Positions 15,085 through 36,130 of a stretch of DNA of 64,000 nucleotides are shown here, one piece after another. The stretch spans positions 2,031 through 66,030 of the forward strand of contig NZ_DASUNI010000344.1 in NCBI RefSeq assembly GCF_036277215.1, written 5' to 3'. Position 1 is the stretch's first letter; every line of letters begins with the position of its first letter. Under the pieces are notes generated by a model that worked only from the letters and a program-made list of their open reading frames with translations, was not told where the DNA came from and searched no databases. Origin of the DNA: Microbacterium sp. (GTDB taxonomy: Bacteria; Actinomycetota; Actinomycetes; Actinomycetales; Microbacteriaceae). The position numbers and the translations under genes were made by a program.

Positions 15085-15088
<4 letters not shown>
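14132..15088 (-). CDS. ABC transporter ATP-binding protein (DppF/OppF-like)
   Basis: Walker A GESGCGKTT, signature FSGGQCQR, Walker B VIVCDEP. ATGA overlap upstream. Confidence 0.9.
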
Positions 15089-16253
<1,165 letters not shown>

Positions 16254-16257
<4 letters not shown>

Positions 16258-17204: not shown

Positions 17205-18154
17205 CGCACGCTCACTCTCGGATCGATCCACGCATAGGCGAGGTCTACGACGATGAAGATGAGCACGTACGCCACGACGCAGATCGTGACGATCGCCTGG
17301 ATCACCGGCATGTCTTTGATGGAGACGGCATTCACGGCCTCCGCGCCGAGGCCGGGGACGGAGAAGAAGAACTCGACGATCACGGCGCCGCCGAGAAGTC
17401 GCCCCAGGGCCAGGCCCATGACCGTGACCAGTGAGGTCAGCGACGGCCGCATCGCGTGACGGGCCAGGATGTACGAGCGGGGCAGGCCCTTGGCCCGGGC
17501 GACCAGGATGTAGTCCTCCCGCAGCGTGCCGGTGAGGTCGGATCGGATCACGCGGTAGAAGAAGGCGCCCTCGTAGATGCTCAGCGCGAGAGCCGGCAGG
17601 AACGCGTACCGGAGGTTGTCGGCCAACGACTCGGAGGGCGGGACCCAGCCGGTCGCGGGGAACCATTTCAGCCAGACCACGAAGATCAGCGAGACGATCA
17701 CGACGTTCACGAACGACGGGATGCTCAGCAGGGCGGAGGTGATGAAGTTGAGGGTCCGATCCAGGAGCTTGCCCGACCGCAGCGCGGCCAGCATGGCGAA
17801 CGGTACGGCGACGATCAGGGCGAAGAACAGCGCCATCAGAGCGATCTGCGCGGTGACCACCAGCCGGCGCATCACCACGTCGGTGACCGGCTCCTGCGTG
17901 AACAGCGTGGTCCCGAAGTCACCGCGCAGGGCGTTGCCCGCCCATTCCAGATAGCGCACCATGAACGGCTGGTCGTAGCCCAGCTGCGCGTTGATCGCGT
18001 CGACCTGCTCCTGGGTGGCGGCGTCGCCGAGGATCGCCTGACCCGGCGATCCGGGCATCAGATCCATCAGCGCGGCCGCGCCGAGCGTCACGATGATCAG
18101 CACGGGGATGCCGTACAGCAGGCGCGAGCCGATCGCCCGCAGAGTGCTTTTCAT
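17201..18154 (-). CDS. ABC transporter permease (DppB/OppB-like)
   Basis: Typical N-terminus RLLYGIPVLIIVTL..., an ARAKGLP EAA loop, and C-terminal DPRV. Confidence 0.9.
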   Translation of the reverse strand: MKSTLRAIGSRLLYGIPVLIIVTLGAAALMDLMPGSPGQAILGDAATQEQVDAINAQLGYDQPFMVRYLEWAGNALRGDFGTTLFTQEPVTDVVMRRLVVTAQIALMALFFALIVAVPFAMLAALRSGKLLDRTLNFITSALLSIPSFVNVVIVSLIFVVWLKWFPATGWVPPSESLADNLRYAFLPALALSIYEGAFFYRVIRSDLTGTLREDYILVARAKGLPRSYILARHAMRPSLTSLVTVMGLALGRLLGGAVIVEFFFSVPGLGAEAVNAVSIKDMPVIQAIVTICVVAYVLIFIVVDLAYAWIDPRVSVR

Positions 18155-18239
18155 GTGCTTCTCCGTCGAAGTGAGGGGGGTGGAGGACCGGTGCCGTGCC
18201 CACCGCAGCGAGCGCCGGCACCGGTCCCTTCGACTTCTG

Positions 18240-19832
18240 CTACTCGGCCTCGTACCCGATCCGGTCGGTGTACAGCGCACCGCGGCCCATGGACTGCAGC
18301 CCGACCACGTCGGCGCCGTGCAGGAACGAGCGGTAGTCGATGCCGAAGACCACGATGGGCACCTGGTCCACGTAGACCTCCTGCACCTTCTGCAGCGCCG
18401 CGATCCGGTCCTCGTCGGTCGTGGCCTCCTGCGCGTCGCTGATCGCCGATGTCATGTCAGCGTCGTCGAAGTTCGCGAAGTTGTCGAGACCACCCACGCC
18501 GAACAGGTTGCCGAAGCCGACCTGCGGGCTGTTGAGGTCGAACACGCCGGGATAGAAGGTGACGTCGAAGTCGTCCTTGTCGTATGCGGCGGCGCGCCAC
18601 TCCGGGATCGGGATCTGCGTGAGGTTGACCGTCACGCCGTCGAGCTCCTGCAGCGTCAGCTGGAACAGCTCACCGGCACGGACGAGCTCCGGCACGCCCG
18701 CGATGAGCAGGTCGATCGTGAAATCGGTGCCTTCGCCGGTGATCTCGTCGACCAGCGCCTGAGCGTCCTCCACGTTCTGCTCGGGCAGTGCCAGGTCGGC
18801 GTCGTAGTAGGGCGAGGTGTCGGGGAACAGCGCGGTGCTGCCCTCGGCCGCCGGGTCCTGCGTCAGCGTCTGCACGAGCTCGGTCGGGTTCACAGCCAGC
18901 TGCACGGCCTGACGGGCGCGCACGTCGCTGAACAGGTCGGAGGTCGTGTTGAAGACGAAGTGGCGGATTCCTCCGGATGCGACCGGGAACACTCCGACCG
19001 ACGGGTTGTCGGCATCGGCGATCCACTGGAACGGGTAGCCGTTCATGATCTGCGCATCGCCCTGGACGACCGAGGTCACGCGCTGAGCGGGGTCGGCGAC
19101 CAGCTGGAAGGTCAGCGTGTCGAGATACGGCTTGCCCTCGTCCCAGTAGTCCGGGTTCTTGGCGAAGGTCTCGCCGACCGCGGGGTCCCACTGCTCGAGT
19201 GTGAACGGGCCCGCGCCGATGGGTTCGGTCAGCGGCGTACCCGCCGCCGGGAAGGACGCCGGCGAGCCGATGAAGGCGATCGAGTCGGCGATCTGGATGT
19301 CGAGCACCGGGTTCGTCTCGTTCGAGGCGATCTCCAGCGTGGTCTCGTCCACGACGGTCGTCGCGAAGGTCGAGGCGACGCGGACGGCGCCCAGGTTGTT
19401 GGCCGGATCGGCGAAGCGATCCCAGTTGTCCTTGACCGCCTGCGCGTCCAGCGCCTCGCCGTCGGTGAAGGTCAGACCCTCCCGCAGCGTCAGCGTCCAG
19501 GTGTCGCCGCCGTCCTCCGTGGTCAGGCTCTCGGCGAGGCCGGGTTCGATCTCACCGTCGGTGTTCACGGTGAGGAGCGCACCGTAGACCGCGTACAGAC
19601 GGTCCCACTGCACGCCCGGGAAACTGCCGGTGGACGAGCCGGGATCCCATGTGCTCATCGCTCCCGCGACGAGGATCGTGAGCTCGCCGCCCTCGGCAGG
19701 GGTCTCTGCACTCGGAACGGTGGCGCTGGGTGATGCGGTGCCCCCGCCGCCGTCGCCGCTGCAGGCCGACAGCGTGAGCGCTGCGGCTGCGGCGACCGCG
19801 AGAGCGGAGAGCCGGAATCGGGACATCTTCAT
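18240..19832 (-). CDS. ABC transporter substrate-binding lipoprotein, family 5 (peptide/opine/oligosaccharide type)
   Basis: Signal peptide plus lipobox (LTLSACSG). Family-5 SBP architecture. Start placed at MKMSRF, residue 165 of the track ORF. Confidence 0.9.
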   Translation of the reverse strand: MKMSRFRLSALAVAAAAALTLSACSGDGGGGTASPSATVPSAETPAEGGELTILVAGAMSTWDPGSSTGSFPGVQWDRLYAVYGALLTVNTDGEIEPGLAESLTTEDGGDTWTLTLREGLTFTDGEALDAQAVKDNWDRFADPANNLGAVRVASTFATTVVDETTLEIASNETNPVLDIQIADSIAFIGSPASFPAAGTPLTEPIGAGPFTLEQWDPAVGETFAKNPDYWDEGKPYLDTLTFQLVADPAQRVTSVVQGDAQIMNGYPFQWIADADNPSVGVFPVASGGIRHFVFNTTSDLFSDVRARQAVQLAVNPTELVQTLTQDPAAEGSTALFPDTSPYYDADLALPEQNVEDAQALVDEITGEGTDFTIDLLIAGVPELVRAGELFQLTLQELDGVTVNLTQIPIPEWRAAAYDKDDFDVTFYPGVFDLNSPQVGFGNLFGVGGLDNFANFDDADMTSAISDAQEATTDEDRIAALQKVQEVYVDQVPIVVFGIDYRSFLHGADVVGLQSMGRGALYTDRIGYEAE

Positions 19833-19926: not shown

Positions 19927-20640
19927 TCAGCGGGTCTCGACGGGGTCGCCGTGTACGGTGCGCCAGAGGTGTCCGTCGCGCCCCTCGCCCTCGAGCTGTG
20001 TGGCGAAGCCGATGCCCTCGAAGGTCTCTGACGGATCCACCACGCCGTGCTCCTCGCCCATACCTGCGGCGAGGATCGCGCCGGGCCGGACCTCGATGTC
20101 CTCACCGCGGTACTTGAGGGTGAAGTGGCCGCGGAAGACGAACCAGTACTCGTCGCCGTCGTGGTAGTGGTAGTCGCAGGGCCGCCCCGGGCCGAACGTG
20201 AAGATCGCGGTGCGGATGGCCTCGCTCCAATGGCCGGCGACGCGCGCGATCTCGACCTGTCCCCGGTGCCCCTCGGGGCCGGGATTGAGGTTGTTGCGCA
20301 CCACCGCGCCGCTGGGCGGGACATCGACCCACTGCATCTTCTTGAGGGTCACGCGGCCCCACTCGGATTCGACGACGGCCTCGCCGGCGACCACGATGAG
20401 CCGCTCTTTGGGGGTGGTGGGCACCACGCGCCGCGCGACCGGGATGTTGTGCGTGGTGTGCAGGCTCGCCTCGGGGTCGGAGACCGGATCGGGCCATTCG
20501 CTCGGTACGGGCTCCTCGCCTTCGGCGACGCGGTCCGCGTTTCCGAGTGTGAAGAACTCCACGTCGTCGATGTCGACCCATGCTTCGCTTGCGGGACGGT
20601 TCTTCAGCTCTTCGCGAGTGGCGTACAGCGGCACCGGCAT
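19927..20640 (-). CDS. Metal-binding cupin domain protein (paralog A)
   Basis: Canonical cupin motif 1 in CDYHYHDGDEYWFVFRG (HxHx3Ex6G). Start at MPVPLY aligns with the paralog at 24595. The upstream ATG at 20691 lies inside the predicted -10. Confidence 0.7.
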   Translation of the reverse strand: MPVPLYATREELKNRPASEAWVDIDDVEFFTLGNADRVAEGEEPVPSEWPDPVSDPEASLHTTHNIPVARRVVPTTPKERLIVVAGEAVVESEWGRVTLKKMQWVDVPPSGAVVRNNLNPGPEGHRGQVEIARVAGHWSEAIRTAIFTFGPGRPCDYHYHDGDEYWFVFRGHFTLKYRGEDIEVRPGAILAAGMGEEHGVVDPSETFEGIGFATQLEGEGRDGHLWRTVHGDPVETR

Positions 20641-20686: not shown

Positions 20687-20732
20687 AGCATAAGACGGGG
20701 TCGACCATCGCGTCAACCACATTGTCAACAAT
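20687..20732 (-). promoter_or_regulatory. Predicted promoter of the cupin-ABC operon plus TTGTTGACAAT motif (copy B)
   Basis: Minus-strand reading ATTGTTGACAAT-GTGG-TTGACG-18 nt-TATGCT. Motif at 20721-20732, -35 at 20711-20716, -10 at 20687-20692. Confidence 0.5.
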
Positions 20733-20766: not shown

Positions 20767-21477
20767 ATGAGCCGAACGCCGACTCTCGTTCGGCGACGCA
20801 GGGGGGCGCACGTGGACAGCCTGGATCAGACGCAGCTGCTCGCTGACCGGCTGCGCTCCGATCTGGCGCGCGGCGAGTACCACCCGCGCGAGCGGCTCGT
20901 CGAGAGCGAGCTCGTCGCGCGCTACGGGTTCGCCCGCGCAACCGTCCGCAGCGCGCTCGTGCAGCTCGCCACGGAAGGGCTGGTGGAGCGCTCGCCGAAC
21001 CGCGGTGCGAGCGTCCGGAGCCTCTCGATCGACGAGGGCATCGAGCTGGCCGAGGTACGGCGCGAGCTGGAAGCGCTGTGCGCGCGCGACGCCGCCGAGA
21101 AGGCGACGGACGAGGAGCGGGAGCGCATGCGGGCGGGCCTCGACGCGATGAGATTCGCCGCGGAGAGCGGCGACGTGCACAGTTATCGCCAGGCGAGCAT
21201 CGCCTTCCATGAGAGCGTCATCGCGCTCTCCCGCCACGAGGGGGCGCGCCGTCAGCTCGCGTCCATCCGCAATCACAACCTTCAGCGCCATTTTCCCGTC
21301 GCATTCCAGACCGGGGCGTTCTCGGACTCCTCGCACGACCACTTCGAGATCGGCGACGCCATCCTGGCCGGCGACCGAGACCAAGCCTCCACCGCGATGC
21401 GCAACCATCTCGATCGGATCGTCGCGATGCTGCAGGAGTTCCGCCGCTCTCAGTCGCAGCCCCACCCGACGCCGTAG
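20767..21477 (+). CDS. GntR family (FCD subfamily) transcriptional regulator
   Basis: LVESELVARYGFARATVRSALVQLATEGLVERSPNRGASV wHTH plus an FCD-like C-terminal domain. Internal ATG of the 476-aa track ORF. Confidence 0.85.
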   Translation: MSRTPTLVRRRRGAHVDSLDQTQLLADRLRSDLARGEYHPRERLVESELVARYGFARATVRSALVQLATEGLVERSPNRGASVRSLSIDEGIELAEVRRELEALCARDAAEKATDEERERMRAGLDAMRFAAESGDVHSYRQASIAFHESVIALSRHEGARRQLASIRNHNLQRHFPVAFQTGAFSDSSHDHFEIGDAILAGDRDQASTAMRNHLDRIVAMLQEFRRSQSQPHPTP

Positions 21478-21505: not shown

Positions 21506-21550
21506 TTGTTGACAATCCGGTTGACAAAGGTCCGATGCGGGTTCTAGCGT
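21506..21550 (+). promoter_or_regulatory. Predicted promoter of the Tm-1-like operon plus TTGTTGACAAT motif (copy C)
   Basis: GTTGTTGACAAT-CCGG-TTGACA-18 nt-TAGCGT. This is the same motif/-35 architecture as copy B. Confidence 0.5.
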
Positions 21551-21618
21551 GAGGACTGAGGTCGTCGGGAATCACCGCGGCCGGTCCACCCGCCTGCGAA
21601 CGATGGAGTTCTCGCCCC

Positions 21619-22848
21619 ATGAGCGACACCGCGCCGACCGACGCCCCCCGGGTGGCCGTCCTGGCCACGCTCGACACCAAGGGGCCCGAGGCGCGATTCC
21701 TGGCCGATGAGCTCTCCGCGCGCGGCATCCGGCCCCTGCTCGTGGACATCGCCCTCACCGGCGCATCGCCGTCCGACGCCTCGATCACCCGGGCCGAGCT
21801 CGCCTCGCGCGGCGCGACCGACGCGTCGGGCGACGATCGCACCACCGCGATGGAGACCACATCGGATGCCGCGGCCGCCGTGCTCGGCGAGCTCGTCGCG
21901 GCGGGCTCGATCGCGGGCGTCATCGGCATCGGCGGCGGCACCGGCGGCTGGATGTCGCAGCGCGCTCTCGAGCCCCTCCCCTTCGGGCTTCCCAAGTTCG
22001 TCGTGACCACGGTCGTGAAGTCTTCGGGCGAGAACGACATCGTCCTCATCCCCAGCGTGGTCGACGTCGCCGGTCTCAACGGGCTGCTCACGACCGTGCT
22101 GCGCAATGCGGCCGCGGCCGTTGCGGGCATGGTCGCCCCGGTCGGTCCCCGCGCCGCGGTCGCACCACGCCCGACGATCGCGATGACCATGTTCGGCGTC
22201 ACCACCGCCGGCGGCGACGTCGCTCGCGCAACGCTCGAAGACGCCGGCTACGACGTCGTGGTGTTCCACGCGACGGGCGCGGGCGGTCGCACGATGGAGC
22301 GGCTCATCGCGGACGGCCGGTTCGCGGGCGTTCTGGACTGGACGACCACCGAGATCACCCAGAACCTCACGGGCGGGCTCTGCGATGCGGGCCCGAACCG
22401 TCTCGAGGCTGCGGCGGCAGCCGGCATCCCGCAGGTCGTCGTGCCCGGCGCGCTGGACGTCATCAACGTGCTGCCGCCCATCCCCGCGGAATTCGCCGAT
22501 CGCGCCCATCACTGGCACCTGCCGACCGTCCCGCTGGTCCGCGCGAACGCTGACGACAGCGCACGAGCCGCCTCGTTCGTCGCCGCGAAGCTCGCCTCCG
22601 CGACCGGACCGGCCGCGGTGCTGATCCCCGAGGGCGGGTTCTCCTCGCTCGACATCGCCGGCGGCGCGTTCGCGGACGCCGACGCCGACGCCGCGTTCAC
22701 CTCGGGCCTGCGCGACGCGCTGCGCCCCGACATCCCGCTCCGCACCAGCCCCCTCCACATCAACGATCCGGCTTTCGCCCGCGAGGCGGCTGCGACCCTG
22801 CTCGCGATGCTTCCCGCGTCGCCCCAGCCCGTGACAGAGAAGGAATGA
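21619..22848 (+). CDS. Tm-1-like ATP-binding domain protein (UPF0261 family)
   Basis: 409 aa. RVAVLATLDTKGPEARFL, GVIGIGGGTGG and TMFGVTT signatures as I recall for the UPF0261 / N-terminal half of tomato Tm-1. Confidence 0.75.
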   Translation: MSDTAPTDAPRVAVLATLDTKGPEARFLADELSARGIRPLLVDIALTGASPSDASITRAELASRGATDASGDDRTTAMETTSDAAAAVLGELVAAGSIAGVIGIGGGTGGWMSQRALEPLPFGLPKFVVTTVVKSSGENDIVLIPSVVDVAGLNGLLTTVLRNAAAAVAGMVAPVGPRAAVAPRPTIAMTMFGVTTAGGDVARATLEDAGYDVVVFHATGAGGRTMERLIADGRFAGVLDWTTTEITQNLTGGLCDAGPNRLEAAAAAGIPQVVVPGALDVINVLPPIPAEFADRAHHWHLPTVPLVRANADDSARAASFVAAKLASATGPAAVLIPEGGFSSLDIAGGAFADADADAAFTSGLRDALRPDIPLRTSPLHINDPAFAREAAATLLAMLPASPQPVTEKE

Positions 22849-22849
22849 C

Positions 22850-23671
22850 ATGGCCCGATTCACCAGGACCCAGATCCTCGAGCGGCTGCGCGCCCAGCTG
22901 GCGGACGGCAAGCCGATCGTAGGTGCCGGCAGCAGCTCGGGACTGATCGCGAAGTCGGCGGCGGCCGGCGGTGCCGACATCATCATCGTCTACAACACCG
23001 GTCGTACCCGCCTGATGGGGCTCGCGACCAACCACCTGCTCAACCACGCCAACCCGACCACGCTCGGCATGTACCGCGAGATCGCGAACGTGGTCCGCGA
23101 CACCCCGATCGTCGGCGGCGCGGAGGCGCAGGACCCGACGTACTGGAACGACGTCGATCGTCTCGTCAGCGACTACCAGGCGACCGGCTACGACGGGCTC
23201 ATCAACTTCCCCACCTCGTTCGCCCAGCCCGACCGCAACGACGTCGGGCTCGGCCTGCAGCTGGATTTCGACATGGTCCGCAAGGCGCGTGAGAAGGACT
23301 ACTTCACGATCTGCTACGGCTACACCGCCGCGCAGACGCAGGGCCTCGCCGCCGCCGGCGCCGACGTCGTGGTCCCGCACGCGGGATGGACCACCGGCGG
23401 CCTCGCGGGTGCGGGGAAGTCGGCGATGACCCTCGAGCAGAGCTGCGAGCACGTCCAGAAGCTCATCGAGCTCGCCCGCTCGGAGAACCCCGACATCATC
23501 TGCCTCGCCCACGGCGGACCGCTGTCGAGCCCCGAGGACCTGCAGTACCTCTACGACACCACGGACGCGCAGGGGTTCCTCGGAGCATCGAGCGCCGAGC
23601 GCATCCCCGTCGAGCGCGCCGTCGTCGAGACCGTCCACCAGTTCAAGTCCTATGCACCGCGCGTGGCCTGA
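22850..23671 (+). CDS. Phosphoenolpyruvate-hydrolase-like TIM-barrel protein (Tm-1 C-terminal-half homolog), copy 1
   Basis: 273 aa. KPIVGAGSSSGLIAKSAAAGGADIIIVYN, INFPT and CLAHGGP segments. Starts 2 nt after the UPF0261 stop. Confidence 0.7.
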   Translation: MARFTRTQILERLRAQLADGKPIVGAGSSSGLIAKSAAAGGADIIIVYNTGRTRLMGLATNHLLNHANPTTLGMYREIANVVRDTPIVGGAEAQDPTYWNDVDRLVSDYQATGYDGLINFPTSFAQPDRNDVGLGLQLDFDMVRKAREKDYFTICYGYTAAQTQGLAAAGADVVVPHAGWTTGGLAGAGKSAMTLEQSCEHVQKLIELARSENPDIICLAHGGPLSSPEDLQYLYDTTDAQGFLGASSAERIPVERAVVETVHQFKSYAPRVA

Positions 23672-23699
23672 GCCCGCGTCGCCCGAGAGGAACCCCCGA

Positions 23700-24575
23700 A
23701 TGAGCAGTGCAGGAGTGGCCGCCCGCGTCTTCACCCGCGCGGAGATCGTCGCGCGGCTGAACGCGACCCTCGGTCGTAAGGAGCCCATCGTCGCGGCCGG
23801 GGCAGGTGTGGGCATCATCGCGAAGTGCGCCGAGATCGGCGGAGCCGACCTGATCTTCGTCCACGCCAACAGCCGCTCGCGCAATCTCGGAGTGCCGACC
23901 TCCATCTACATCGGCAACCCGATCGACATGACCCTCGCGATGTTCCCCGAGATCGACAATGTCGTGGACTCCACGCCCGTCATCGCGGGAATCGACGCGA
24001 CGGACGGCCAGCGCCGGCGGTTGGCGCCGGTCGTCGACGACTACATCGCCCGCGGCATCAACGGCATCACGAACTTCCCGACGGCGCTGGCCTACACCGG
24101 CACGTGGGGCCGAGCACGCAACGACGTCGGGATGGGCTCGAACCGAGAGCTCGAGCTGCTCGCGCTCGCCGGCGAGCGCGACGTGTTCACGGTGGGCCAG
24201 GCGTACGACGTCACGTTCGCCGGCGAGCTGGCCGGCGCGGGAGCAGACCTCATCGTCGCCCGCTGCGGTCTCACCCAGGGTGGGATGGTGGGCCCGCGCG
24301 CCGACGCCGAGAGCAGCCTCTCCGTTCCCGCAGCCACCGAGCACGTGCAGGCGGTCCTGGAGTCGGCGCGGGCGCAGAACCCGGACGTGCTGGTCATCGC
24401 GCACGGCGGCCCGTTCAACCACCCCGCCACCACCGAGTACCTGTACGCCAACAGCGACGTGCAGGGCGTCCTCGGCGAGTCCGCGATCGAGCGGATCCCC
24501 GTCGAGCAGTACGTCACGGCTGAGATCGAGATGTTCAAGAGCCCGCTTCTGCGCAACCACGCGCAATACGTCTGA
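23700..24575 (+). CDS. Phosphoenolpyruvate-hydrolase-like TIM-barrel protein, copy 2 (paralog of 22850-23671)
   Basis: Colinear with copy 1 (EPIVAAGAGVGIIAKCAEIGGADLIFVH, TNFPT, VIAHGGP). ATG at 23700 with GAGAGG upstream. Confidence 0.7.
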   Translation: MSSAGVAARVFTRAEIVARLNATLGRKEPIVAAGAGVGIIAKCAEIGGADLIFVHANSRSRNLGVPTSIYIGNPIDMTLAMFPEIDNVVDSTPVIAGIDATDGQRRRLAPVVDDYIARGINGITNFPTALAYTGTWGRARNDVGMGSNRELELLALAGERDVFTVGQAYDVTFAGELAGAGADLIVARCGLTQGGMVGPRADAESSLSVPAATEHVQAVLESARAQNPDVLVIAHGGPFNHPATTEYLYANSDVQGVLGESAIERIPVEQYVTAEIEMFKSPLLRNHAQYV

Positions 24576-24594
24576 GCCGGAAGGAACCACAGCT

Positions 24595-25326
24595 ATGCCC
24601 ATCTTCAACCGCGAGACCCTCAAGGCCGCCAACCTGCCCTGGGTCGAGATCGAGGACTTCGAGTTCATCCACCTCGGTCGCACGATGGTGACCAACAACC
24701 ACAAGGTCACCGCCGACGAGAACGGCCACGTCGCCTATTGGGGCTACTACCAGGACCGCCCGCTCGCCTCGACCCTGCGGATCGACCCGACCACCCCGAA
24801 GGACCGCATCACGGTGGTCAGCGGTCAGGTGCAGGTCGAGACCGACGCCGGCCGGGTGACGCTGCACAAGCGGGACTACTTCGACATCCCGGCATCCGGG
24901 GCCACGATCACCAACAGCGGCCAGTCGATGGCCGAGCTCGTGCGCGTGATGGGCCGCTGGGACCACACGGTGCGCAACGAGATCTGCATGTTCCGACCCG
25001 AGAATCCGTGCGACTACCACTACCACGACGGCGACGAGTACTGGGTGATCTTCCGCGGGCACTTCACCCTCGACTACGCCGGCATGCGCATCCCGGTCGG
25101 CCCCGGCGACCTCCTCGCCGCAGGCAAGGGCATCCCGCACGGAGCACTGGCGCCGGAGGAGACGATGAACGGGATCGTCATGGCCATGCCGCTCGAGGAC
25201 GCCAAACGCGACGGACACCTCAACCACAAGAACCAGGGCGAGCCCACGGTCGGCCGGGAGGTTCCCGAGTCGATCTGGGCCGACCTGCGCGCGCGCTCCA
25301 TCGGCGACGTCGTCGTCCCCGACTGA
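24595..25326 (+). CDS. Metal-binding cupin domain protein (paralog B)
   Basis: CDYHYHDGDEYWVIFRGHFTL is nearly identical to paralog A. GGAAGGA RBS. Confidence 0.7.
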   Translation: MPIFNRETLKAANLPWVEIEDFEFIHLGRTMVTNNHKVTADENGHVAYWGYYQDRPLASTLRIDPTTPKDRITVVSGQVQVETDAGRVTLHKRDYFDIPASGATITNSGQSMAELVRVMGRWDHTVRNEICMFRPENPCDYHYHDGDEYWVIFRGHFTLDYAGMRIPVGPGDLLAAGKGIPHGALAPEETMNGIVMAMPLEDAKRDGHLNHKNQGEPTVGREVPESIWADLRARSIGDVVVPD

Positions 25327-25335
25327 GAGAAGCCC

Positions 25336-26370
25336 ATGACCACCACGCATTCAGTACCCAGGGTCACCATCGGCCGCTCCGGAATCACCACCTCGCAGCT
25401 GTCGCTGGGCACGTGGGGCATCGGCAAGGCGGCCGCCGCCGCGACCATCGGCGACGACGAGACGATCATCACGGTGCTCGAGGCCGCCTTCGACGCCGGC
25501 ATCACCTACCTCGACTCGGCCGACATGTACGAGAACGAGGACCGTCTCGGCCGCCTTCTCAAGGAGGTGCGCAACAAGCCCGACGACCTGCTCATCGCGA
25601 CCAAGTACGGCCACGGCAAGCCCTTCACCGCCGACGGTGTGCGTCGCGCGGTCGAGCAGTCGCTGGCCTCGCTCGAGCTGGAGACCATCCCGCTCATGAT
25701 GCTCCACGACCCGCGCGGCGAGGAGGACATGGCCGAGGTCTTCGGTGCCGGCGGAGCGCTGGAGGGCCTGCGCGCCCTGCAGAGCGAGGGTCTCGTCGGC
25801 GCGATCGGCGTCGCCACCGGCACCATGCAGCCGCTGCACGCCGCGGTGGACTCCGACGAGTTCGACGTCATCCAGTTCCCGCGCCTGTACACGCTGGTGA
25901 ACCGCGCAGCGAAGACATCCGGACTGCTCGAGAAGGCCCGGGCCAAAGGCATCGGCACCCAGCTGGCCGCGCCGTTCACCGGCAACATCCTGGCGACCGG
26001 GGTGCGCGGAGTCGACAAGCCGCTGTACGCGTACTGGCCGGCGCAACCCGAGGTGATCGAGGCGGTCGGACGCATGCAGGACCGCGCCGACGAGCTCGGC
26101 ATCACGATCGCGCAGGCGGCGGTGGCCTACGTCGCCACCGAGCCGCTGATCGACGTCGCCGTCATCGGCGTGCGCACGCCGGGTGAAGTCGAGGAGAACG
26201 TCGAGTCGCTGTTCACCGGCGTCTCGCGCGACGACCTCGAGTCGATCGCCGACGCCGGCGCCGTGGACGAGAGCCTGATGGGCGGCCCTGACTTCGTGTG
26301 GCCCTTCCCGCTCGATCGCGTGCCCGACGAGCTCAAGGACGTCGTGTCGAAGAACGCGGGACACAAGTGA
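25336..26370 (+). CDS. Aldo/keto reductase (aldose 1-dehydrogenase-like subgroup)
   Basis: LSLGTWGIG, LDSADMYENE, ATKYGH and MLHDP motifs. Confidence 0.85.
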   Translation: MTTTHSVPRVTIGRSGITTSQLSLGTWGIGKAAAAATIGDDETIITVLEAAFDAGITYLDSADMYENEDRLGRLLKEVRNKPDDLLIATKYGHGKPFTADGVRRAVEQSLASLELETIPLMMLHDPRGEEDMAEVFGAGGALEGLRALQSEGLVGAIGVATGTMQPLHAAVDSDEFDVIQFPRLYTLVNRAAKTSGLLEKARAKGIGTQLAAPFTGNILATGVRGVDKPLYAYWPAQPEVIEAVGRMQDRADELGITIAQAAVAYVATEPLIDVAVIGVRTPGEVEENVESLFTGVSRDDLESIADAGAVDESLMGGPDFVWPFPLDRVPDELKDVVSKNAGHK

Positions 26371-27383
26371 CTGCGCACACGACGACCCTGGGCCGCACCG
26401 GTCTGACCACCTCGCGCATCGGCCTCGGCGCGTGGGGGCTGGAGAACCCCAACGGCTCGCACCCCGCCGTGCACGTGCTCGGCGAGGAGGCGGTGACCGG
26501 GATGCTGCGCGAGGCGTTCTCGCTCGGCATCACGCTTCTCGACTCGGCGGAGGTGTACGCCAACGAAGAGGCGCTCGGAAAGGCGCTTCGTTCGCTCGAC
26601 AACGTCCCCGACGACCTGATCGTCTCGACGAAGTTCGGGCACGGCAAAGGCTTCAGCGGCGCGCAGATCCGCGATTCCGTCGAACGGAGCCTCGACGCGT
26701 TCGCAATCGAGTCCATCCCGCTGTTCATGCTCCACGACCCGCGCGGCGACGCCGACCTCGAGGTCATCTACGCGCACGGCGGCGCCCTGCCCGAGCTGCG
26801 CCGACTGCAGGACGAGGGTCTGGTCGGCAGCGTCGGCATCGCGACCGGCACGCTCGCGCCGCTGCTGTCCGCGGTCGAGTCGGACGAGTTCGACGTGATC
26901 CAGTTCCCGCGGCTCTATACGCTCCTGAACGACTCGGCGAAAAGCTCCGGGCTGCTCGAGAAGGCGCGGGAGAAGAACATCGGGACGATCCTCACGTCGC
27001 CGTTCACCGGCAACATCCTGGGCACGGGCGTGCGCGGCGTGGACGACCCGCTCTACAGCTTCTGGGGCGCTCAGCCCGAGGTCGTCGCCGCCGTCGCCCG
27101 AATGGAGGATGCCGCCGAGGCGTCGGGCCTCGCGCTGCCGGAGGCGGCGATGGCCTATGCGCTGGCCGAACCGCTCATCGACGTGGTGGTGATCGGCGTC
27201 AAGAACATCGCGGAGCTGCGCCAGGACGTCGCCGTCCAGGACGCGGACATCGATCCCGAGACGCTGCAGGGCATCGCCGAAGCGGGCCGGGTCGACCAGC
27301 ACCTGCTGGGCGGGCCCGAGTACGTGTGGCCGTTCCCGATGGAGCGCATGCCCGCCGACCTGAAGGCCAAGCTGGGGCTCTAG
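26367..27383 (+). CDS. Aldo/keto reductase, tandem paralog
   Basis: Colinear with the preceding AKR (IGLGAWGL, LDSAEVYANE, STKFGH, MLHDP). GTG start overlaps the upstream TGA. Confidence 0.85.
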   Translation: MTAHTTTLGRTGLTTSRIGLGAWGLENPNGSHPAVHVLGEEAVTGMLREAFSLGITLLDSAEVYANEEALGKALRSLDNVPDDLIVSTKFGHGKGFSGAQIRDSVERSLDAFAIESIPLFMLHDPRGDADLEVIYAHGGALPELRRLQDEGLVGSVGIATGTLAPLLSAVESDEFDVIQFPRLYTLLNDSAKSSGLLEKAREKNIGTILTSPFTGNILGTGVRGVDDPLYSFWGAQPEVVAAVARMEDAAEASGLALPEAAMAYALAEPLIDVVVIGVKNIAELRQDVAVQDADIDPETLQGIAEAGRVDQHLLGGPEYVWPFPMERMPADLKAKLGL

Positions 27384-28903
27384 TGCACGTCGTCGTCGTG
27401 GGCGCCGGTTCGGCCGGCTGCGCGGTGGCGGGACGCCTCGCCGAGGGCGGCGCGTCCGTCACGCTGCTCGAGGCAGGTCCGGACTGGCGCAGCGAATCCT
27501 GTCCCGACGAGATCCGCCGCCCGCGCGACGACGTGTTCGCGTGGCGGGTCGACGGCCGGGCCCCGAGCTCGTTCGCCTACCCCGGCGTCGTCGCGCGGCG
27601 ATTCGAGGACGGCCCGATGGACCCGTACCTGCGGGGGTGGGGCGTGGGCGGCACGTCGTCGCTGAACGGACTGGTCACGGTACGGCCGCCCACGGACGAG
27701 TTCGACGAGTGGGAGGCGGGCGGCTGCGCAGGCTGGGGCTGGAGCGACGTGCTGCCGGTGTTCCGCCGCCTGGAGAACGATGTCGACTACGGCTCGCAGC
27801 CGTTCCACGGCAGGGGCGGGCCGGTGCCCGTGGTGCGCCGGCAGCAGTCCGAGTGGGGCTCCGGCGACCGGCTCCTGGCAGATGCGGCGTTCGCGGCCGG
27901 TCACGCATGGGAGCCCGACTACCACCGGCCCGGGGCCCTCGGCGTCTCGCGCACGGCCAGCAACATCCACCTCGGCGTCCGGGTCACCGCGTACGACGGC
28001 TATGTCGAGCCCTGGCGCGGCGAGGGACGCATCACCGTCGAGGCGGACGTCACGGCGTCCCGGGTCGTACTGCGCGGATCGCGCGCCCTCGGCGTCGAGA
28101 CCGTCGACCGCGCCGGTGCGGTCCACCTCACGGAGGGCGATCACATCATCCTCGCCGGCGGAGCGGCCGCGACCCCTGCGATCCTGCAGCGCTCGGGTAT
28201 CGGGCCCGCCGGCATGCTCGAGGCACTCGGCATCCCGGTCGTATCCGACCTGCCCGTGGGCGAGGGCATCCAGGATCATGTGGGGTTCTGGCTGCAGATC
28301 GCGCACGACGGTGCTGAGCCGGCCGCGAACGGAGCCCGCGGCAACGCGACGCTGCGCTACAGCTCGGGCCTGCCGCACTCGCGCTCCGGCGACCTGCTCG
28401 TCGTCGCCGCGAATCCCGCAACGGCCGACGCCGCCGAAGTGGCATTCGGGGTCAAACTTGCGTACTGCCTCAGCCGGGGCAGCTCGCGGATCGTGTCACG
28501 CGACCCGCGTGCGGCAGCGGACATCCGGATGAACCTGCTCGCCGACGGGGGCGACCGGGCACTGGCGCGCCACGCGGTGCGCTCCTCTGTGCGGATGCTG
28601 GCTCCGCACACCAGCTCGGTGCGCGATCGCAACGGCGACGTCGTCGATCCCGACTGGAGCGACGCCGATGTCGACGCGTGGCTGCGCGCCTCCGCCCGCG
28701 ACACCTCCCACCTCACAGGCGGTGCGCGGATGGGTGACTCGGACCACGACACGACGGTGGTCGACCCTCGGCTCCGGGTCCTCGGAGTCGACGGCCTCAC
28801 GGTCGCCGACCTGTCGGTCTGCCCGATCGTCCCGCGCGCGAACACCTACCTCACGGCGGTGATGATCGGCGAGCGTGCGGCCGACTTCGTCCTGGGACGG
28901 TGA
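27383..28903 (+). CDS. GMC family FAD-dependent oxidoreductase
   Basis: N-terminus VVVVGAGSAGCAVAGRLAE (GxGxxG), GGTSSLNG, and C-terminal HLTGGARMG...VVDPRLRV.GVDGL.VADLSV. GTG start overlaps the upstream TAG. The 823-aa track ORF is rejected. Confidence 0.85.
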   Translation: MHVVVVGAGSAGCAVAGRLAEGGASVTLLEAGPDWRSESCPDEIRRPRDDVFAWRVDGRAPSSFAYPGVVARRFEDGPMDPYLRGWGVGGTSSLNGLVTVRPPTDEFDEWEAGGCAGWGWSDVLPVFRRLENDVDYGSQPFHGRGGPVPVVRRQQSEWGSGDRLLADAAFAAGHAWEPDYHRPGALGVSRTASNIHLGVRVTAYDGYVEPWRGEGRITVEADVTASRVVLRGSRALGVETVDRAGAVHLTEGDHIILAGGAAATPAILQRSGIGPAGMLEALGIPVVSDLPVGEGIQDHVGFWLQIAHDGAEPAANGARGNATLRYSSGLPHSRSGDLLVVAANPATADAAEVAFGVKLAYCLSRGSSRIVSRDPRAAADIRMNLLADGGDRALARHAVRSSVRMLAPHTSSVRDRNGDVVDPDWSDADVDAWLRASARDTSHLTGGARMGDSDHDTTVVDPRLRVLGVDGLTVADLSVCPIVPRANTYLTAVMIGERAADFVLGR

Positions 28904-28943: not shown

Positions 28944-29612
28944 TCAATCCACGCTCGCCGCGGTCGCGTCGCGGATGCCGCGGAGCGCATCGAGGACGTT
29001 GTCGCGATGCCGGTACGCCGCCTCGAGCGCTCCGGCCTCGTCGCCGGCGATCACGGCCTCAACGACCCGTTCGTACTCGTGCATGGAGTCCACCCGACGA
29101 TCCGGCAGCTGGTACGGGTACCAGTTGATCCGCACCTGGCTCTGCAGCGTCTCGATGATGCGGGAGGCGGTCTGGTGACCGCTGATGCGGCGGATGACGC
29201 GCGAGATCTCCGAGTTCGCCGCTGCGGTGCGCGCACGGTCACCGTCCTCGACCGAGGAGCGCAACTCTTCCAGCAACGCGGTCAGCTCGGCGCGGTCGGC
29301 ATCGGTCACGCGCGTCGCCGCGCGGCCCGCGCACATCGCCTGCAGCGAGAGGCGCACCTCGGTCGACTCGATCGCCTCGTCGATCGAGACGGGACGCACC
29401 CGGGCGCCGCGATTGGCCTCGCGTTCGACGAGGCCGAGGGCTGCGAGTTCGATCAGCGCCCCTCGCACCGCGTTGCGCGACGTGCGGTATCGGGCGCACA
29501 GCTCGACCTCGATCAGACGCTCGCGAGGGTGGTAGACGCCTTCCCTGATGTCGTGCGCGATCAGGTCGACGAGCTCAGCCTTGGGCTGCGGCACTTCGGC
29601 CAGGCTGGTCAT
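28944..29612 (-). CDS. GntR family (FCD subfamily) transcriptional regulator
   Basis: LIEVELCARYRTSRNAVRGALIELAALGLVEREANRGARV wHTH plus an FCD-like domain. Confidence 0.85.
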   Translation of the reverse strand: MTSLAEVPQPKAELVDLIAHDIREGVYHPRERLIEVELCARYRTSRNAVRGALIELAALGLVEREANRGARVRPVSIDEAIESTEVRLSLQAMCAGRAATRVTDADRAELTALLEELRSSVEDGDRARTAAANSEISRVIRRISGHQTASRIIETLQSQVRINWYPYQLPDRRVDSMHEYERVVEAVIAGDEAGALEAAYRHRDNVLDALRGIRDATAASVD

Positions 29613-29739: not shown

Positions 29740-30636
29740 ATGGAGATCGTCGATGCGCAGGTGCATCTGAACATGATCGGGCTCGAGGCAGGGCTGGTGG
29801 CGATGGATGCCGCCGGCGTCGACGCCCTGGTGATCGACGAGTTCTGGGGCTTCGACGATCGTGGACGACCCCTGCCGTCGTCCCCATTGCCGGGCGGGTC
29901 GGTGCGGCACATCAGCCCGATCGGCGAACTGGCCGTGGCGCGGCACCCCGATCGCTTCGCCTACCTCACGCGAGCGCAGCCGGACGATCCCGAGCTGGAT
30001 CGTGTGATCGGCGAGCTGCGCACCGAACCGGGACGACTCGCTCTGCGCATCCTTCCCTTCGTGCCGTTTCCGCCGAGCGCCGGCGAGCGTCGCGAGAACG
30101 ACGAAGCCGTCGACGCCTTCGCCGCCGAGCTGGTCGGGGGTCGCTACGACCGGTACTTCGAGCTTGCGCAGGATGCCCGCGTGCCGGTGTTCATCCAGGT
30201 CAACGGCATCGGCATCGCCGGCCGGCTCGACGCGATCCGCGAGGTCGCAGCCGCTCATCCGGCGTTGCCGGTCATCGTCGACCACCTCGGCGTCGCGATG
30301 CCCGGATCCCGTGCGCACCGCCCCGACCGGTTCGCGCAGTTCGCCGAAGTGTGCCGGCTGGCGGAGCTGGCGAACGTGCACGTCAAGTGGGGGCATGCGA
30401 CGCGCCTGAGCGAGGAGCCGTACCCGTTCTCCGACGTCGCCCGGGCGCTGCGGAGCGTCGTGGACGCGTTCGGCGCCGACCGGGTCATGTGGGCGAGCGA
30501 CTGGACGCTCGATCTGGAATGGAGCTCGTGGGCGGAGTCGTTCGGGTACATCCGCGACGATGGCGTCCTCAGTGAGGCCGACCGCGCCGCGGTGCTCGGC
30601 GGCACCGTGCGCCGGGTGCTGGAATGGCCGCGCTGA
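29740..30636 (+). CDS. Amidohydrolase-2 family metal-dependent hydrolase (lactonase/decarboxylase-type TIM barrel)
   Basis: IVDAQVHL N-terminal metal motif, VIVDHLG, and the DRVMWASDW C-terminal motif. Confidence 0.75.
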   Translation: MEIVDAQVHLNMIGLEAGLVAMDAAGVDALVIDEFWGFDDRGRPLPSSPLPGGSVRHISPIGELAVARHPDRFAYLTRAQPDDPELDRVIGELRTEPGRLALRILPFVPFPPSAGERRENDEAVDAFAAELVGGRYDRYFELAQDARVPVFIQVNGIGIAGRLDAIREVAAAHPALPVIVDHLGVAMPGSRAHRPDRFAQFAEVCRLAELANVHVKWGHATRLSEEPYPFSDVARALRSVVDAFGADRVMWASDWTLDLEWSSWAESFGYIRDDGVLSEADRAAVLGGTVRRVLEWPR

Positions 30637-30701: not shown

Positions 30702-32279
30702 CTACTCCGTGCGGAAGAGCTTCTCCGGCAGGATCGAGCCTCGTCCGAACGCCTCGAAGCCCTGCACCTCGGCGCTGTGGAAGAAGATCCGATGATCGAA
30801 CCCGAAGGAGTAGATCGGCACTTCGTCGACGTAGATCTGCTGCACCTGTGCGAGCGCGGCAGCCTTCTCCTCCTCGCTCGTGGCCGTACGCAGCTCGTCC
30901 AGCGCTGCGGTCATCTCCGGGCTGGAGGAGTTCTGGATGTTGTCCGTGCCGTCCTTCTCGAAGAGGTTCGTGAAGGTGGACGCGACCGGGTTGATGTCGT
31001 AGATGCCCAAGTAGAACGTGATGTCGAAGTCGTCATTGCCCTGCGTGCGCAGACGCCAGTCCTGGATCTGCACCTGCTCGATGTCGACGGTGACGCCCTC
31101 GAGCTGCTGGAGCGTGAGCTGCACGTACTCCGCCGACCGGATGCTCTCCGGAATCGCCGCCGGGACGATCGTGAACGACATGTCCACTCCGTCGGCGATC
31201 AGCTCGTCGACGAGCTTCTGAGCCTCCTCGAGATCCGGCTCGGGCAGTCCGAGCGCCGCGTCGTAGTACGGCGACTCATCGGAGAACAGCGTGGTCGAGC
31301 CGACCTGCTCCGGGTCCGACAGCAGCGTCTGCACCAGCTCGGTCGGCTCCAGCGCGAGGGCGACGGCCTTCCGGGCGCGCACGTCATCGAACGGTGCGCG
31401 CGTGTTGTTGAAGACGAGGTGACGGAAACCGCCGTTCTCGACGGTGAACATCTCGAACCGGTCGTCGTCGGCGTAGTCGCGGAAGTCGGAGGAGAACCCG
31501 TTCATCAGGTCGGCGCTGCCGCCGGCGATGGTCTCGACGCGCTGCGACGGGTCGCCGACGGTGCGGTAGTGCAGTGCGTCGTAGACGGGCTTGCCCAGCG
31601 CGTAGTCGGGGTTGGCCTCGAGGTCCTCGCCGATCGCGGGATCCTGGTGAGTGAGGATGAACGGACCGGCGCCGACCGGCTCGACGTACTCATCCGCTTG
31701 GAGCGCCGTCGGAGAGGCGACGAACTGCATCAGTTCGGCGATCTGCTCGTCGAGCACGGGGTTGGCGGCCTTCGCCGTGACGGCGAGTGTCACCTCGTCC
31801 ACGACCTCGGTGGTGAAGGACTGCGCGAGCGCCATCGTCGGCGAACCGGTGGCGGGGTCGGCGTTGCGGTCCCAGTTGAATTTGACCGCGGCGGCGTCGA
31901 AGGCCGTGCCGTCGGTGAAGGTGATGCCGGGCCGCAGCGTGAGGGTCCAGGTGGTGCCGCCGTCCTCGGTCGTGAAGCTCTCCGCCAGGCTCGGGACGAG
32001 TTCTCCGCTCTGGTCCACGTAGAACAGCTGGCCGTACACCGCGACGAGCCGGTCGGTGGTGACCCCCGGCAGGGTGCCGAAGAAGGCGAGCGCGGGATCC
32101 CACGTGCCCATTCCCGCGGCGGACATGATGGTGATCTCGCCGCCCTCGGCGGGTTCACCGGTCGCGCCGCCGTCACTGTTTCCACCGCCTCCTCCGGAGC
32201 ACGCCGCCAGCAGCAGTGCGAGCGAAGTGCCCGCACCGATTAGGGCGAGTCGCCAGGGGTTCCTCTTCATCGAGTGCAT
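30702..32279 (-). CDS. ABC transporter substrate-binding lipoprotein, family 5 (orphan paralog of 18240-19832)
   Basis: Lipobox LLLAACSG. Colinear, roughly half-identical by eye to the SBP at 18240-19832. No permease or ATPase genes are adjacent. Confidence 0.85.
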   Translation of the reverse strand: MHSMKRNPWRLALIGAGTSLALLLAACSGGGGGNSDGGATGEPAEGGEITIMSAAGMGTWDPALAFFGTLPGVTTDRLVAVYGQLFYVDQSGELVPSLAESFTTEDGGTTWTLTLRPGITFTDGTAFDAAAVKFNWDRNADPATGSPTMALAQSFTTEVVDEVTLAVTAKAANPVLDEQIAELMQFVASPTALQADEYVEPVGAGPFILTHQDPAIGEDLEANPDYALGKPVYDALHYRTVGDPSQRVETIAGGSADLMNGFSSDFRDYADDDRFEMFTVENGGFRHLVFNNTRAPFDDVRARKAVALALEPTELVQTLLSDPEQVGSTTLFSDESPYYDAALGLPEPDLEEAQKLVDELIADGVDMSFTIVPAAIPESIRSAEYVQLTLQQLEGVTVDIEQVQIQDWRLRTQGNDDFDITFYLGIYDINPVASTFTNLFEKDGTDNIQNSSSPEMTAALDELRTATSEEEKAAALAQVQQIYVDEVPIYSFGFDHRIFFHSAEVQGFEAFGRGSILPEKLFRTE

Positions 32280-36112: not shown

Positions 36113-36130
36113 CTCGGTACGATCGGTCCT

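Follow-up and report, generated by a model that had tools for sequence, protein, structure and literature searches.

What does a UPF0261 (Tm-1-like ATP-binding) protein do in a bacterial cell together with its TIM-barrel partner of family PF09370? The two families are fused in plants and their association has already been recognised (PMC5028733), and their biochemistry so far comes down to one stand-alone kinase described in 2025. The question is raised by a seven-gene operon (g1 to g7) of Microbacterium sp., found in a 64,000-nucleotide stretch of contig NZ_DASUNI010000344.1 (hereafter the window, whose numbering is used for all positions). In this operon a UPF0261 gene is followed by two PF09370 barrels (TIM1 and TIM2), a bicupin, two aldo-keto reductases (AKRs) and an FAD-dependent GMC oxidoreductase. 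We propose, with a probability of roughly one half, that the cluster supplies the central enzymes of a conserved catabolic regulon under GntR control, acting on a sugar, cyclitol or sugar-acid compound, maybe in conjugated form.

The window has a G+C content of about 70%, which makes raw lists of open reading frames noisy, and coding frames were told apart by their third-position G+C. The seven co-directional reading frames on the forward strand (21619-28903) translate without internal stops at the coordinates of a first-pass annotation of this DNA, and each has a third-position G+C of 0.85-0.96 in its own frame, a strong coding signal. Independent gene callers returned the same seven genes, with the same lengths, on three near-identical contigs (L001, L111 and L112; related loci are given L numbers throughout). 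The junctions from g1/g2 to g4/g5 have gaps of 1, 28, 19 and 9 nt, while g5 and g6 overlap by 4 nt (GTGA, 26367-26370) and g6 and g7 by 1 nt (TAGTG, 27381-27385). No promoter-like or terminator-like site was found inside g1-g7, and an Rfam scan of the window from 12 to 37 kb gave no match. Translation, Pfam and the junctions thus bear out the seven genes of the first-pass annotation with their domains and spacing, including the redox set (cupin, two AKRs, GMC) that it placed in one operon with the Tm-1-like module. The single transcription unit that it predicted appears plausible from the tight spacing, the lack of internal promoter-like or terminator-like sites and the gene order kept across phyla. 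Several functions are duplicated around the cluster, namely TIM barrel, cupin, AKR, GntR regulator and solute-binding protein.

Conservation of the arrangement was assessed by scanning one genome per species with the cupin profile and then mapping the window proteins by tblastn. The order UPF0261–TIM1–TIM2–bicupin–AKR is kept in Luethyella okanaganae (L006), in Pseudolysinimonas (L010) and in metagenome-assembled genomes (MAGs) of Pseudoclavibacter and Microbacterium, and the same core order is found in uncultured Actinomycetes (L008, L009) and in three Chloroflexota MAGs (L012, L013, L021). Microbacterium thalassium holds close homologues of g1 (P0232), TIM2 (P0101) and the bicupin (P0008). 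UPF0261–TIM(–TIM)–bicupin is the part that never varies, and an AKR usually comes next; as for the seven-gene arrangement whose conservation the first-pass annotation had left to be checked, it is this core that is conserved and not the full set of seven, since the g7 gene occurs only in Microbacteriaceae-type loci, metagenome contigs of that type included, as a lineage-specific accessory. The neighbourhood census that the annotation had called for revealed a conserved cluster and no characterised member.

The conserved unit exceeds seven genes, because all families of the single operon in L029 (sugar-type ABC transporter, UPF0261, TIM, TIM, cupin, AKR, HpcH aldolase, 2-hydroxyacid dehydrogenase, AKR, Ldh_2 and iron-dependent alcohol dehydrogenase) occur in the window too, inside a span of 25 kb. 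The pathway extends past g1-g7 to the ABC transporter, a second cupin (cupinB), a GFO-family dehydrogenase, two GntR regulators, an aldehyde dehydrogenase (ALDH), an iron-dependent alcohol dehydrogenase (Fe-ADH) and an Ldh_2 enzyme, and possibly to the HpcH aldolase and 2-hydroxyacid dehydrogenase of the window. The order cupin–AKR–HpcH–(2-hydroxyacid dehydrogenase)–AKR recurs in L013, L029 and L030, the last of which has neither UPF0261 nor TIM. One distant member (L026) combines a monosaccharide ABC transporter, a zinc-dependent alcohol dehydrogenase and dihydroxyacetone kinase with UPF0261, TIM, AKR, an HpcH aldolase and an enolase-superfamily protein; other versions include a PF04199 cyclase-family hydrolase, Amidohydro_2, short-chain dehydrogenase/reductase, histidinol-dehydrogenase-family or luciferase-like proteins and varied transporters. 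L021 (JAXLXE010000004.1) carries three PF09370 and two UPF0261 genes, with the cupin between the first and second TIM. MocR-type regulators (GntR plus aminotransferase) are encoded in L021, in L029 and on a plasmid of Streptomyces sp. SAT1 (L118).

A tblastn search of plasmids placed a reduced form of the module on two rhizobial symbiosis plasmids, pNGR234a (L115, NC_000914.2, 277.5-288 kb) and pMLa (L114, NC_002679.1, 341.5-348 kb). Its order there is truncated TIM, UPF0261, TIM, bicupin and GFO, followed by a σ54 activator with an N-terminal PF09370 domain, and next to these genes on pNGR234a are a sugar ABC transporter and otsAB. The cupin of the two plasmids truly belongs to the g4 family (hhalign probability 99.6%, E 9e-24), and the TIM product of the pMLa cluster has the size of Mll9387 (PDB 2P10), the only solved structure of the PF09370 family. 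No literature on these plasmid genes was found.

The UPF0261 family as a whole is far broader than this cluster type, with at least 6,773 homologues at E≤1e-20. It occurs on 344 plasmid records, only 12 of which also hold the bicupin. In a metagenome scan with the UPF0261 profile, 80 loci were kept; UPF0261 and TIM are adjacent in most of them, which, like the fusion in plants, speaks for a functional coupling of the two, and several lack a TIM within the available sequence. Most of the 80 are 38-45% identical to g1 with one adjacent TIM, and the cluster type described here was seen only in L031 and L032, two further loci (L033, L034; 52-54% identity) lying on contigs too short to tell. Neighbours of the generic UPF0261–TIM pairs are highly diverse. 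On pHV3 of Haloferax volcanii (L116, 255-265 kb) UPF0261 is linked to a branched-chain-amino-acid-type ABC transporter, with a PF09370 gene and a small single-domain cupin about 7 kb beyond it.

The product of g1 scores 144.8 and 250.3 bits against the Pfam models PF06792 and PF23189 (cutoffs of 27) and, with 398.4 bits against NCBIfam NF002674 (cutoff 335), belongs to the UPF0261 subfamily. Its matches in the PDB are Tm-1 (E 2.7e-60) and MarK (9MPY, E 3.2e-55). MarK (multiple aromatic kinase, Saro_1862 of Novosphingobium aromaticivorans; Journal of Biological Chemistry, 2025) is a UPF0261 kinase that converts ATP to ADP while phosphorylating acetovanillone and other phenols, which its authors present as the first catalytic function for the family (PMC12624787). 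With this ATP-to-ADP hydroxyl kinase (PMC12624787; PDB 9MPY), the statement of the first-pass annotation that the UPF0261/TIM pair has no assigned function is outdated for the UPF0261 half. It still holds for the pair, as no published function for the pair, its cupin link or this cluster was found in the literature searched, where only the MarK paper, one on Tm-1L evolution and a phylogenetic-profiling note bore on the subject.

The two proteins align end to end, albeit at low identity (191 bits over about 400 residues). The ATP-site residues D14-T15-K16 of MarK correspond to D19-T20-K21 of g1; Lys16 of MarK needed an E16K mutation, whereas g1 has the lysine natively. MarK His219, which contacts the acceptor oxygen, corresponds to His217 of g1 in the motif FH(A/S)xGxGG, and an H-x-H motif (H298/H300 in g1) is common to both. 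The ATP-site D-T-K and the acceptor histidine are invariant in the UPF0261 alignment. In contrast, the ketone-binding His348 of MarK is replaced in g1 by Leu344, within the sequence GFSSLD, and Tm-1 also has a leucine at this position. Because the kinase motifs are kept and His348 is replaced, g1 is very probably a kinase with a substrate other than that of MarK.

Both barrels are full-length members of PF09370, with 246.2 bits for g2 and 205.1 bits for g3 (cutoff 33.8), each covering positions 1-266 of the 267 of the profile. The g2 product matches PDB 2P10 with E 4.8e-48. An AlphaFold (AF2) model of g3 (pLDDT 84.7) also has 2P10 as its best Foldseek match (TM 0.84), followed by PEP mutase, 2-methylisocitrate lyase, carboxyPEP mutase and phosphonopyruvate hydrolase (TM 0.56-0.60). 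Modelling thus assigns the PF09370 barrels to the fold of the PEP mutase/isocitrate lyase superfamily, as a distant branch: this is the nearest fold class after 2P10 (Foldseek E 6e-12 to 1e-9), but the sequence identity is only 13-21% and Pfam finds none of those families in the barrels. A ribulose-phosphate-binding barrel with a standard phosphate site was considered and rejected, the fold search leading to PEP mutase/isocitrate lyase.

The duplication of the barrel, pointed out in the first-pass annotation, is real and, because TIM1/TIM2 orthologue pairs are maintained from Actinomycetota to Chloroflexota, ancient. The two copies are 40-41% identical. No other protein of the cluster is as conserved as TIM1 (68-88% identity across phyla); TIM2 shows 51-79%, and UPF0261 51-55% in the cross-phylum loci. 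The motifs pHAGWT and GASS, kept in TIM1, 2P10 and single-copy TIMs, are replaced in TIM2 by ARCGLT and GES. Elsewhere PF09370 is found at the N-terminus, as a sensor domain, in σ54 activators (L110:7935-9758; L115:10747-12576 on pNGR234a; L114:8508-10337 on pMLa) and in an AraC-type regulator (L086:8653-9843), all encoded beside UPF0261–TIM pairs, so that judging from domain architecture the barrel can serve as a ligand sensor for these systems. TIM2, or both barrels, might accordingly be a non-enzymatic, ligand-binding regulatory subunit of the UPF0261 kinase (a kind of TIM-barrel signal transduction), which would leave the chemistry to the kinase, the cupin and the oxidoreductases. The sensor domains, the loss from TIM2 of the pHAGWT histidine and the GASS motif, and its faster evolution would fit such a role. 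However, TIM2 has strictly conserved motifs of its own (RR-RL, ARCGLT and GES-IERIP) that argue for a specific function and not for decay, it carries no DNA-binding or other output domain, and the cluster already has two GntR regulators. We regard this explanation as less likely than a catalytic pair, but, given the sensor domains, as a serious option and the best placed of the rivals to the main reading.

The bicupin g4 stands out most among the proteins of the cluster and is very rare. It reaches 42.4 bits against Cupin_2 (cutoff 27.2), and its C-terminal barrel has the metal motif H142-x-H144-D-x2-E148...H182, invariant in 22 sequences. The AF2 model (pLDDT 90.7) matches only generic bicupins, with TM scores of at most 0.46, the nearest folds being BacB, AerE, YlbA-type proteins and quercetinases, and all sequence matches to solved structures have E >0.06. 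Assignment to KduI/IolB, KdgF or a dioxygenase family was rejected, as beyond Cupin_2 not a single Pfam match appeared even at E≤10. A word-indexed search of 5.8 billion proteins returned 92 relatives, and a HMMER profile run against 1.84 billion cluster representatives returned 23 at E≤1e-30 and 277 at E≤1e-3.

The two AKRs, g5 and g6, are paralogues (54-57% identity; Pfam scores of 133 and 125.5 bits). By motif, g5 has the catalytic tetrad D60/Y65, K90 and H124 (DSADMY/ATKYG/MLHDP), and g6 the same tetrad (DSAEVY/STKFG/MLHDP). The solved protein nearest to both is plant L-galactose dehydrogenase, at just 66.6 bits. The GMC domains of g7 score 99.9 and 93 bits, with the FAD-binding GxGxxG motif present as GAGSAG (residues 7-12) and His443/Asn487 as the active-site pair. 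Its nearest solved relatives are 5-hydroxymethylfurfural (HMF) oxidase (185.7 bits), choline dehydrogenase and pyridoxine 4-oxidase, and it falls under the cutoffs of both MftG (TIGR03970, 286.5 against 387.45 bits) and the choline dehydrogenase BetA (TIGR01810, 225.4 against 732.1 bits).

Control by a GntR regulator is suggested by a gene that the first-pass annotation does not mention, GntR_a, which ends 141 nt upstream of g1 and whose position is kept in L002-L010 and L032; an alternative start at 20812, as called on L001, would give a product of 221 amino acids. TTGT-N2-ACAA palindromes lie in both promoter regions flanking it, TTGTTGACAA at 21506 before g1 and TTGTCAACAA at 20722, where it adjoins a minus-strand promoter-like site (20716-20687). 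Downstream of the first copy, a second TTGACA (-35-like) is followed 18 nt further on by TAGCGT (-10-like). TTGTYRACAA has 7 matches in the window, where 1.1 would be expected. GntR_a is the probable repressor of both divergent operons; this pairing of regulator and operator is put forward with caution, since the palindrome has the form of a GntR-family operator but overlaps a TTGACA hexamer. TTGTYRACAA may be a shared operator type, or may just contain the local -35 consensus. Its other copies, at 1797, 36103, 36914, 36937 and 44318, are intergenic and beside other regulators, among them an IclR gene (36104-36892) and a GntR/FCD paralogue, the third of the window (1810-2520).

A GntR-controlled, sugar-type pathway is proposed because every recurrent partner family is typical of carbohydrate or sugar-acid catabolism, namely HpcH aldolase, 2-hydroxyacid and Ldh_2 dehydrogenases, Fe-ADH, ALDH, lactonase-type hydrolase, GFO, AKR, ABC transporters and GntR. 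From the gene structure, the domains, the conservation of the module, the kinase motifs of g1, the fold class of the barrels and the metal motif of the cupin, we infer a set of enzymatic steps, their order and a substrate class; a characterised homologue stands behind the kinase step alone, fold and context behind the others. The divergent Opp-type ABC transporter would import the substrate. GFO, both AKRs and, in Microbacteriaceae only, the GMC enzyme would generate carbonyl intermediates, and g1, as an ATP-to-ADP kinase, would phosphorylate a hydroxyl or enol group. The PF09370 barrels would then work on the intermediate so activated, at its α-oxo or α-hydroxy-acid moiety, TIM1 probably as the catalytic subunit and TIM2 as a specialised partner or second-step catalyst, and the metal-dependent bicupin would isomerise or otherwise convert an enediol or dicarbonyl species. 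Aldol cleavage of the HpcH type would yield pyruvate and an aldehyde, the products being handled by ALDH, Fe-ADH, Ldh_2 and 2-hydroxyacid dehydrogenases.

A bolder proposal, on which we would not bet, is that an ATP-dependent enzyme system of three components, so far unrecognised, is made up of UPF0261, one or both PF09370 barrels and the HYHD-bicupin, and that its reaction has no described counterpart. For example, the kinase may drive the rearrangement of a keto or enediol sugar acid, or the cleavage of one of its C-C or C-O bonds, by way of an enol phosphate. Two more specific substrate assignments were also considered. A sulfonate, suggested by an Ldh_2 protein nearest to sulfolactate dehydrogenase, an Fe-ADH near sulfoacetaldehyde reductase and luciferase-like genes in L021 and L022, was dropped as the scores were far below cutoffs; an Amadori- or opine-type compound, suggested by distant matches of the solute-binding proteins to AgaA and AccA and by the MocR-type regulators of L021, L029 and Streptomyces SAT1, is a lead only.

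Several observations weigh against the sugar-type pathway. No equivalog-level NCBIfam assignment was obtained for g1-g7 or for those flanking catabolic genes that were checked, the window contains no sugar-acid dehydratase, and the SBP_bac_5 transporter type is not typical for simple sugars. Since PF09370 is also a sensor domain of regulators, a TIM copy could bind a ligand without catalysis. The sole characterised UPF0261 enzyme, MarK, acts on phenols and not on sugars, and the UPF0261–TIM pair of Thermomicrobium roseum stands in an aromatic-looking context. Aromatic meta-cleavage genes lie 10 kb upstream of the cluster, and the assignment of the window HpcH aldolase and 2-hydroxyacid dehydrogenase, which possibly belong to the same pathway as the cluster, is uncertain because both directly follow these genes and may serve the aromatic pathway instead.

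The last of these points favour a MarK-like catabolism of phenolic or other aromatic compounds, in which g1 would transfer phosphate to a phenolic hydroxyl group of a heteroaromatic or lignin-derived molecule. As a dioxygenase, the cupin would cleave the ring or attack a side chain; g7 would oxidise aryl alcohols or be an oxidase of the HMF type, and aromatic aldehydes would be left to ALDH and the AKRs. To the credit of this reading, besides MarK as the only precedent, are HMF oxidase as the best solved relative of g7, the T. roseum pair with its PEP-utilising enzymes, fumarylacetoacetate hydrolase and cyclase, and the upstream 4-oxalomesaconate tautomerase (the sole flanking protein above an equivalog cutoff) with a catechol-2,3-dioxygenase-like VOC protein (within 7997-10240, forward strand; 300 bits, just below the cutoff of 320). 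However, the ketone-binding histidine of MarK is a leucine in g1, MarK needs no TIM partner, and no biotin carboxylase of the AcvCDE/HpeCBA type (acvCDEF/hpeCBAD) is found among the genes annotated between 2.6 and 44 kb of the window. The phosphatase gene at the end of the divergent operon was rejected as a conserved dephosphorylation partner, being absent from every related locus within 10 kb. Moreover, other phyla pair the module with sugar-type ABC transporters, dihydroxyacetone kinase, GFO and HpcH aldolases, and most cluster versions have no GMC gene. An aromatic substrate thus seems improbable, somewhat more so than a regulatory TIM subunit.

Far less credible is the oxidation of a glycoside or C-glycoside at position 3, in which the GMC enzyme would make a 3-keto-glycoside to be cleaved and processed by the other gene products. 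The Microbacteriaceae include known C-glycoside degraders, and the locus encodes a GMC oxidoreductase as well as a GFO dehydrogenase. However, the relatives of g7 are choline dehydrogenase, HMF oxidase and MftG-type GMC proteins, no C-glycoside 3-oxidase of the CarA type is among its 41 solved relatives at E≤1e-20, and the annotated genes between 2.6 and 44 kb include no xylose-isomerase-like C-C lyase (CarB/C; AP_endonuc_2). The first-pass annotation was right to disfavour C-glycoside catabolism for want of this lyase, and the GMC enzyme proves in addition to be of another subtype and dispensable, its gene missing from most conserved cluster versions. Finally, that g1-g4 and g5-g7 are adjacent by chance or transcribed separately, as the variation of the GMC enzyme and second AKR between lineages could suggest, is scarcely tenable given gaps of at most 28 nt, two start/stop overlaps, zero internal promoter-like or terminator-like sites and a cupin–AKR order kept in nearly all loci of three phyla.

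The sugar-type reading draws on the genes around the operon as well, whose coordinates are collected in Table 1. The divergent minus-strand unit comprises eight genes, with cupinB, the Opp/Dpp-type ABC transporter and GFO, and the tyrosine-phosphatase-family gene as the last. GFO recurs with the module in L008, L009, L015 and L032 and adjoins the cupin on pNGR234a and pMLa. The nearest solved relatives of the SBP_bac_5 proteins bind glutathione, nickel complexes and opines, but at about 100 bits are too distant to name a ligand. On the other side of the operon, the ALDH, Fe-ADH and Ldh_2 trio stands behind GntR_b in L010 and L111, with ALDH and Fe-ADH in L006 and L032; these enzymes are probable downstream steps of the pathway. 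L112, a contig that stops shortly beyond it, carries the Amidohydro_2 gene, as does L006, where it is accompanied by the second SBP_bac_5, and both genes are absent from L111 and L010. Against the otherwise near-identical L111, this pattern looks like a recent insertion or deletion within the regulon. Further upstream, two paralogous GCV_T (aminomethyltransferase folate-binding) proteins (2632-4062 and 5079-6605, both on the minus strand) flank a LysR gene (4088-5035), near a PIG-L deacetylase gene (6698-7468); these are unrelated to the cluster.

Table 1. Features of the seven-gene operon and its surroundings, in window coordinates (aa, amino acids).
Feature	Position	Strand	Description and evidence
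g1	21619-22848	+	UPF0261 (Tm-1-like ATP-binding), 409 aa; Pfam UPF0261_C 1.5e-74 / UPF0261 N-terminal domain 3.4e-42
g2 (TIM1)	22850-23671	+	PEP_hydrolase PF09370 TIM barrel, 273 aa; Pfam 4.4e-73
g3 (TIM2)	23700-24575	+	PEP_hydrolase PF09370 TIM barrel, 291 aa; Pfam 1.5e-60
g4 (bicupin)	24595-25326	+	Cupin_2, 243 aa; Pfam 5.8e-11
g5 (aldo-keto reductase 1)	25336-26370	+	Aldo_ket_red, 344 aa; Pfam 1.5e-38
g6 (aldo-keto reductase 2)	26367-27383	+	Aldo_ket_red, 338 aa; Pfam 2.8e-36
g7 (FAD-dependent GMC oxidoreductase)	27383-28903	+	506 aa; GMC_oxred_N 2.4e-28 / GMC_oxred_C 3.2e-26
Promoter/operator region of the operon	21506-21550	+	GntR-type palindrome TTGTTGACAA 21506-21515, TTGACA 21521-21526, TAGCGT 21545-21550
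Second operator palindrome copy	20722-20731	+	TTGTCAACAA; divergent promoter region, between cupinB and GntR_a
GntR_a (GntR/FCD regulator)	20767-21477	+	Pfam GntR and FCD on the identical gene in L001, L111
GntR_b (second GntR/FCD regulator)	28944-29612	-	Pfam; convergent with g7; position kept in related loci
cupinB (g4 paralogue, 43% identity)	19927-20634	-	First gene of the divergent transporter operon; gene call in L001, L111
Opp/Dpp-type ABC transporter	14132-19832	-	Pfam, gene calls, synteny with related loci
SBP_bac_5 of the transporter	18240-19832	-	Pfam
Two permeases	17201-18154, 16254-17204	-	Pfam
Two ATPases	15085-16257, 14132-15088	-	Pfam
GFO/IDH/MocA NAD-dependent dehydrogenase	12981-14225	-	Pfam; in the divergent transporter operon
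Tyrosine-phosphatase-family gene (Y_phosphatase3)	12196-13002	-	Last gene of the divergent transporter operon
Amidohydro_2 protein (lactonase/decarboxylase-type hydrolase)	29740-30636	+	Pfam
Second SBP_bac_5 (about 50% identical to the first)	30702-32279	-	Pfam
ALDH	32313-33761	-	Pfam
Fe-dependent alcohol dehydrogenase	33787-35016	-	Pfam
Ldh_2-family dehydrogenase	35013-36077	-	Pfam
HpcH/HpaI class II aldolase	11440-12186	+	Pfam
2-hydroxyacid dehydrogenase	10361-11407	+	Pfam
4-oxalomesaconate tautomerase	7997-9241	+	NF033377 456 bits, cutoff 440

All domain families of the cluster are known, as is the association of UPF0261 with the TIM barrel (PMC5028733). What is new, relative to the literature found, is that the pair is tightly tied to a rare, dedicated bicupin in Actinomycetota, Chloroflexota and rhizobial symbiosis plasmids, and that an ancient TIM duplication goes with a defined set of oxidoreductase partners. 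The cluster is a good and experimentally accessible entry to a long-standing puzzle, and unprecedented chemistry is one possible reading of it. Its context is unusually rich: the barrel is duplicated, a very rare bicupin is dedicated to the module, the oxidoreductase partners are defined, and the substrate might be recognised from the ligands of the two solute-binding proteins or the two GntR regulators. Cultured or genetically tractable hosts carry related clusters (Luethyella okanaganae CCUG 43304, Microbacterium thalassium, S. fredii NGR234 and M. japonicum MAFF303099), a crystal structure of one component is on hand (2P10), and Haloferax volcanii, a genetically tractable archaeon, is a possible host for studying the UPF0261/PF09370 pair. 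A solved function would annotate thousands of proteins now called Tm-1-like ATP-binding or phosphoenolpyruvate hydrolase family, and could lead to a new route by which a compound from plants or soil is broken down. If the three-component system were true, it would provide the first biochemical function for the Tm-1-like domain pair of bacteria, archaea, fungi and plants, and would explain the symbiosis-plasmid clusters that hold Mll9387.

How does the cluster compare with known systems? MarK is a stand-alone homodimer without a TIM partner and has a biotin carboxylase and a phosphatase (acvCDEF) as genomic partners, whereas g1 precedes two TIM barrels. Tomato Tm-1 and its plant and fungal relatives (PDB 3WRV-3WRY; PMC5028733) have the same two domains, functionally coupled; however, these are fused in Tm-1, while here they are encoded separately with the barrel duplicated, and the only known role of Tm-1 is to inhibit viral replication; it is not known to be an enzyme, and no cupin partner is described for it. 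Mll9387 of Mesorhizobium japonicum pMLa (2P10), deposited as a putative phosphonopyruvate hydrolase, is a PF09370 protein like g2 and g3, and its neighbours are likewise UPF0261, a g4-family bicupin and GFO. The pMLa cluster differs in having one full-length and one truncated TIM, a σ54 activator with a PF09370 sensor in place of GntR, and no AKR or GMC gene. A logic of cupin isomerase, kinase and aldolase that resembles the proposed steps is that of the KduI–KduD–KdgK–KdgA and IolG–IolB–IolC–IolJ pathways. No protein of the cluster belongs to the families of those pathways, g4 being without a KduI/IolB match at E≤10, the kinase being UPF0261 and not PfkB, and the aldolase being of the HpcH type and encoded outside the seven-gene operon; yet the roles would be the same, with an NAD dehydrogenase (GFO or AKR), a metal cupin, an ATP-dependent kinase and an aldolase leading to a three-carbon product.

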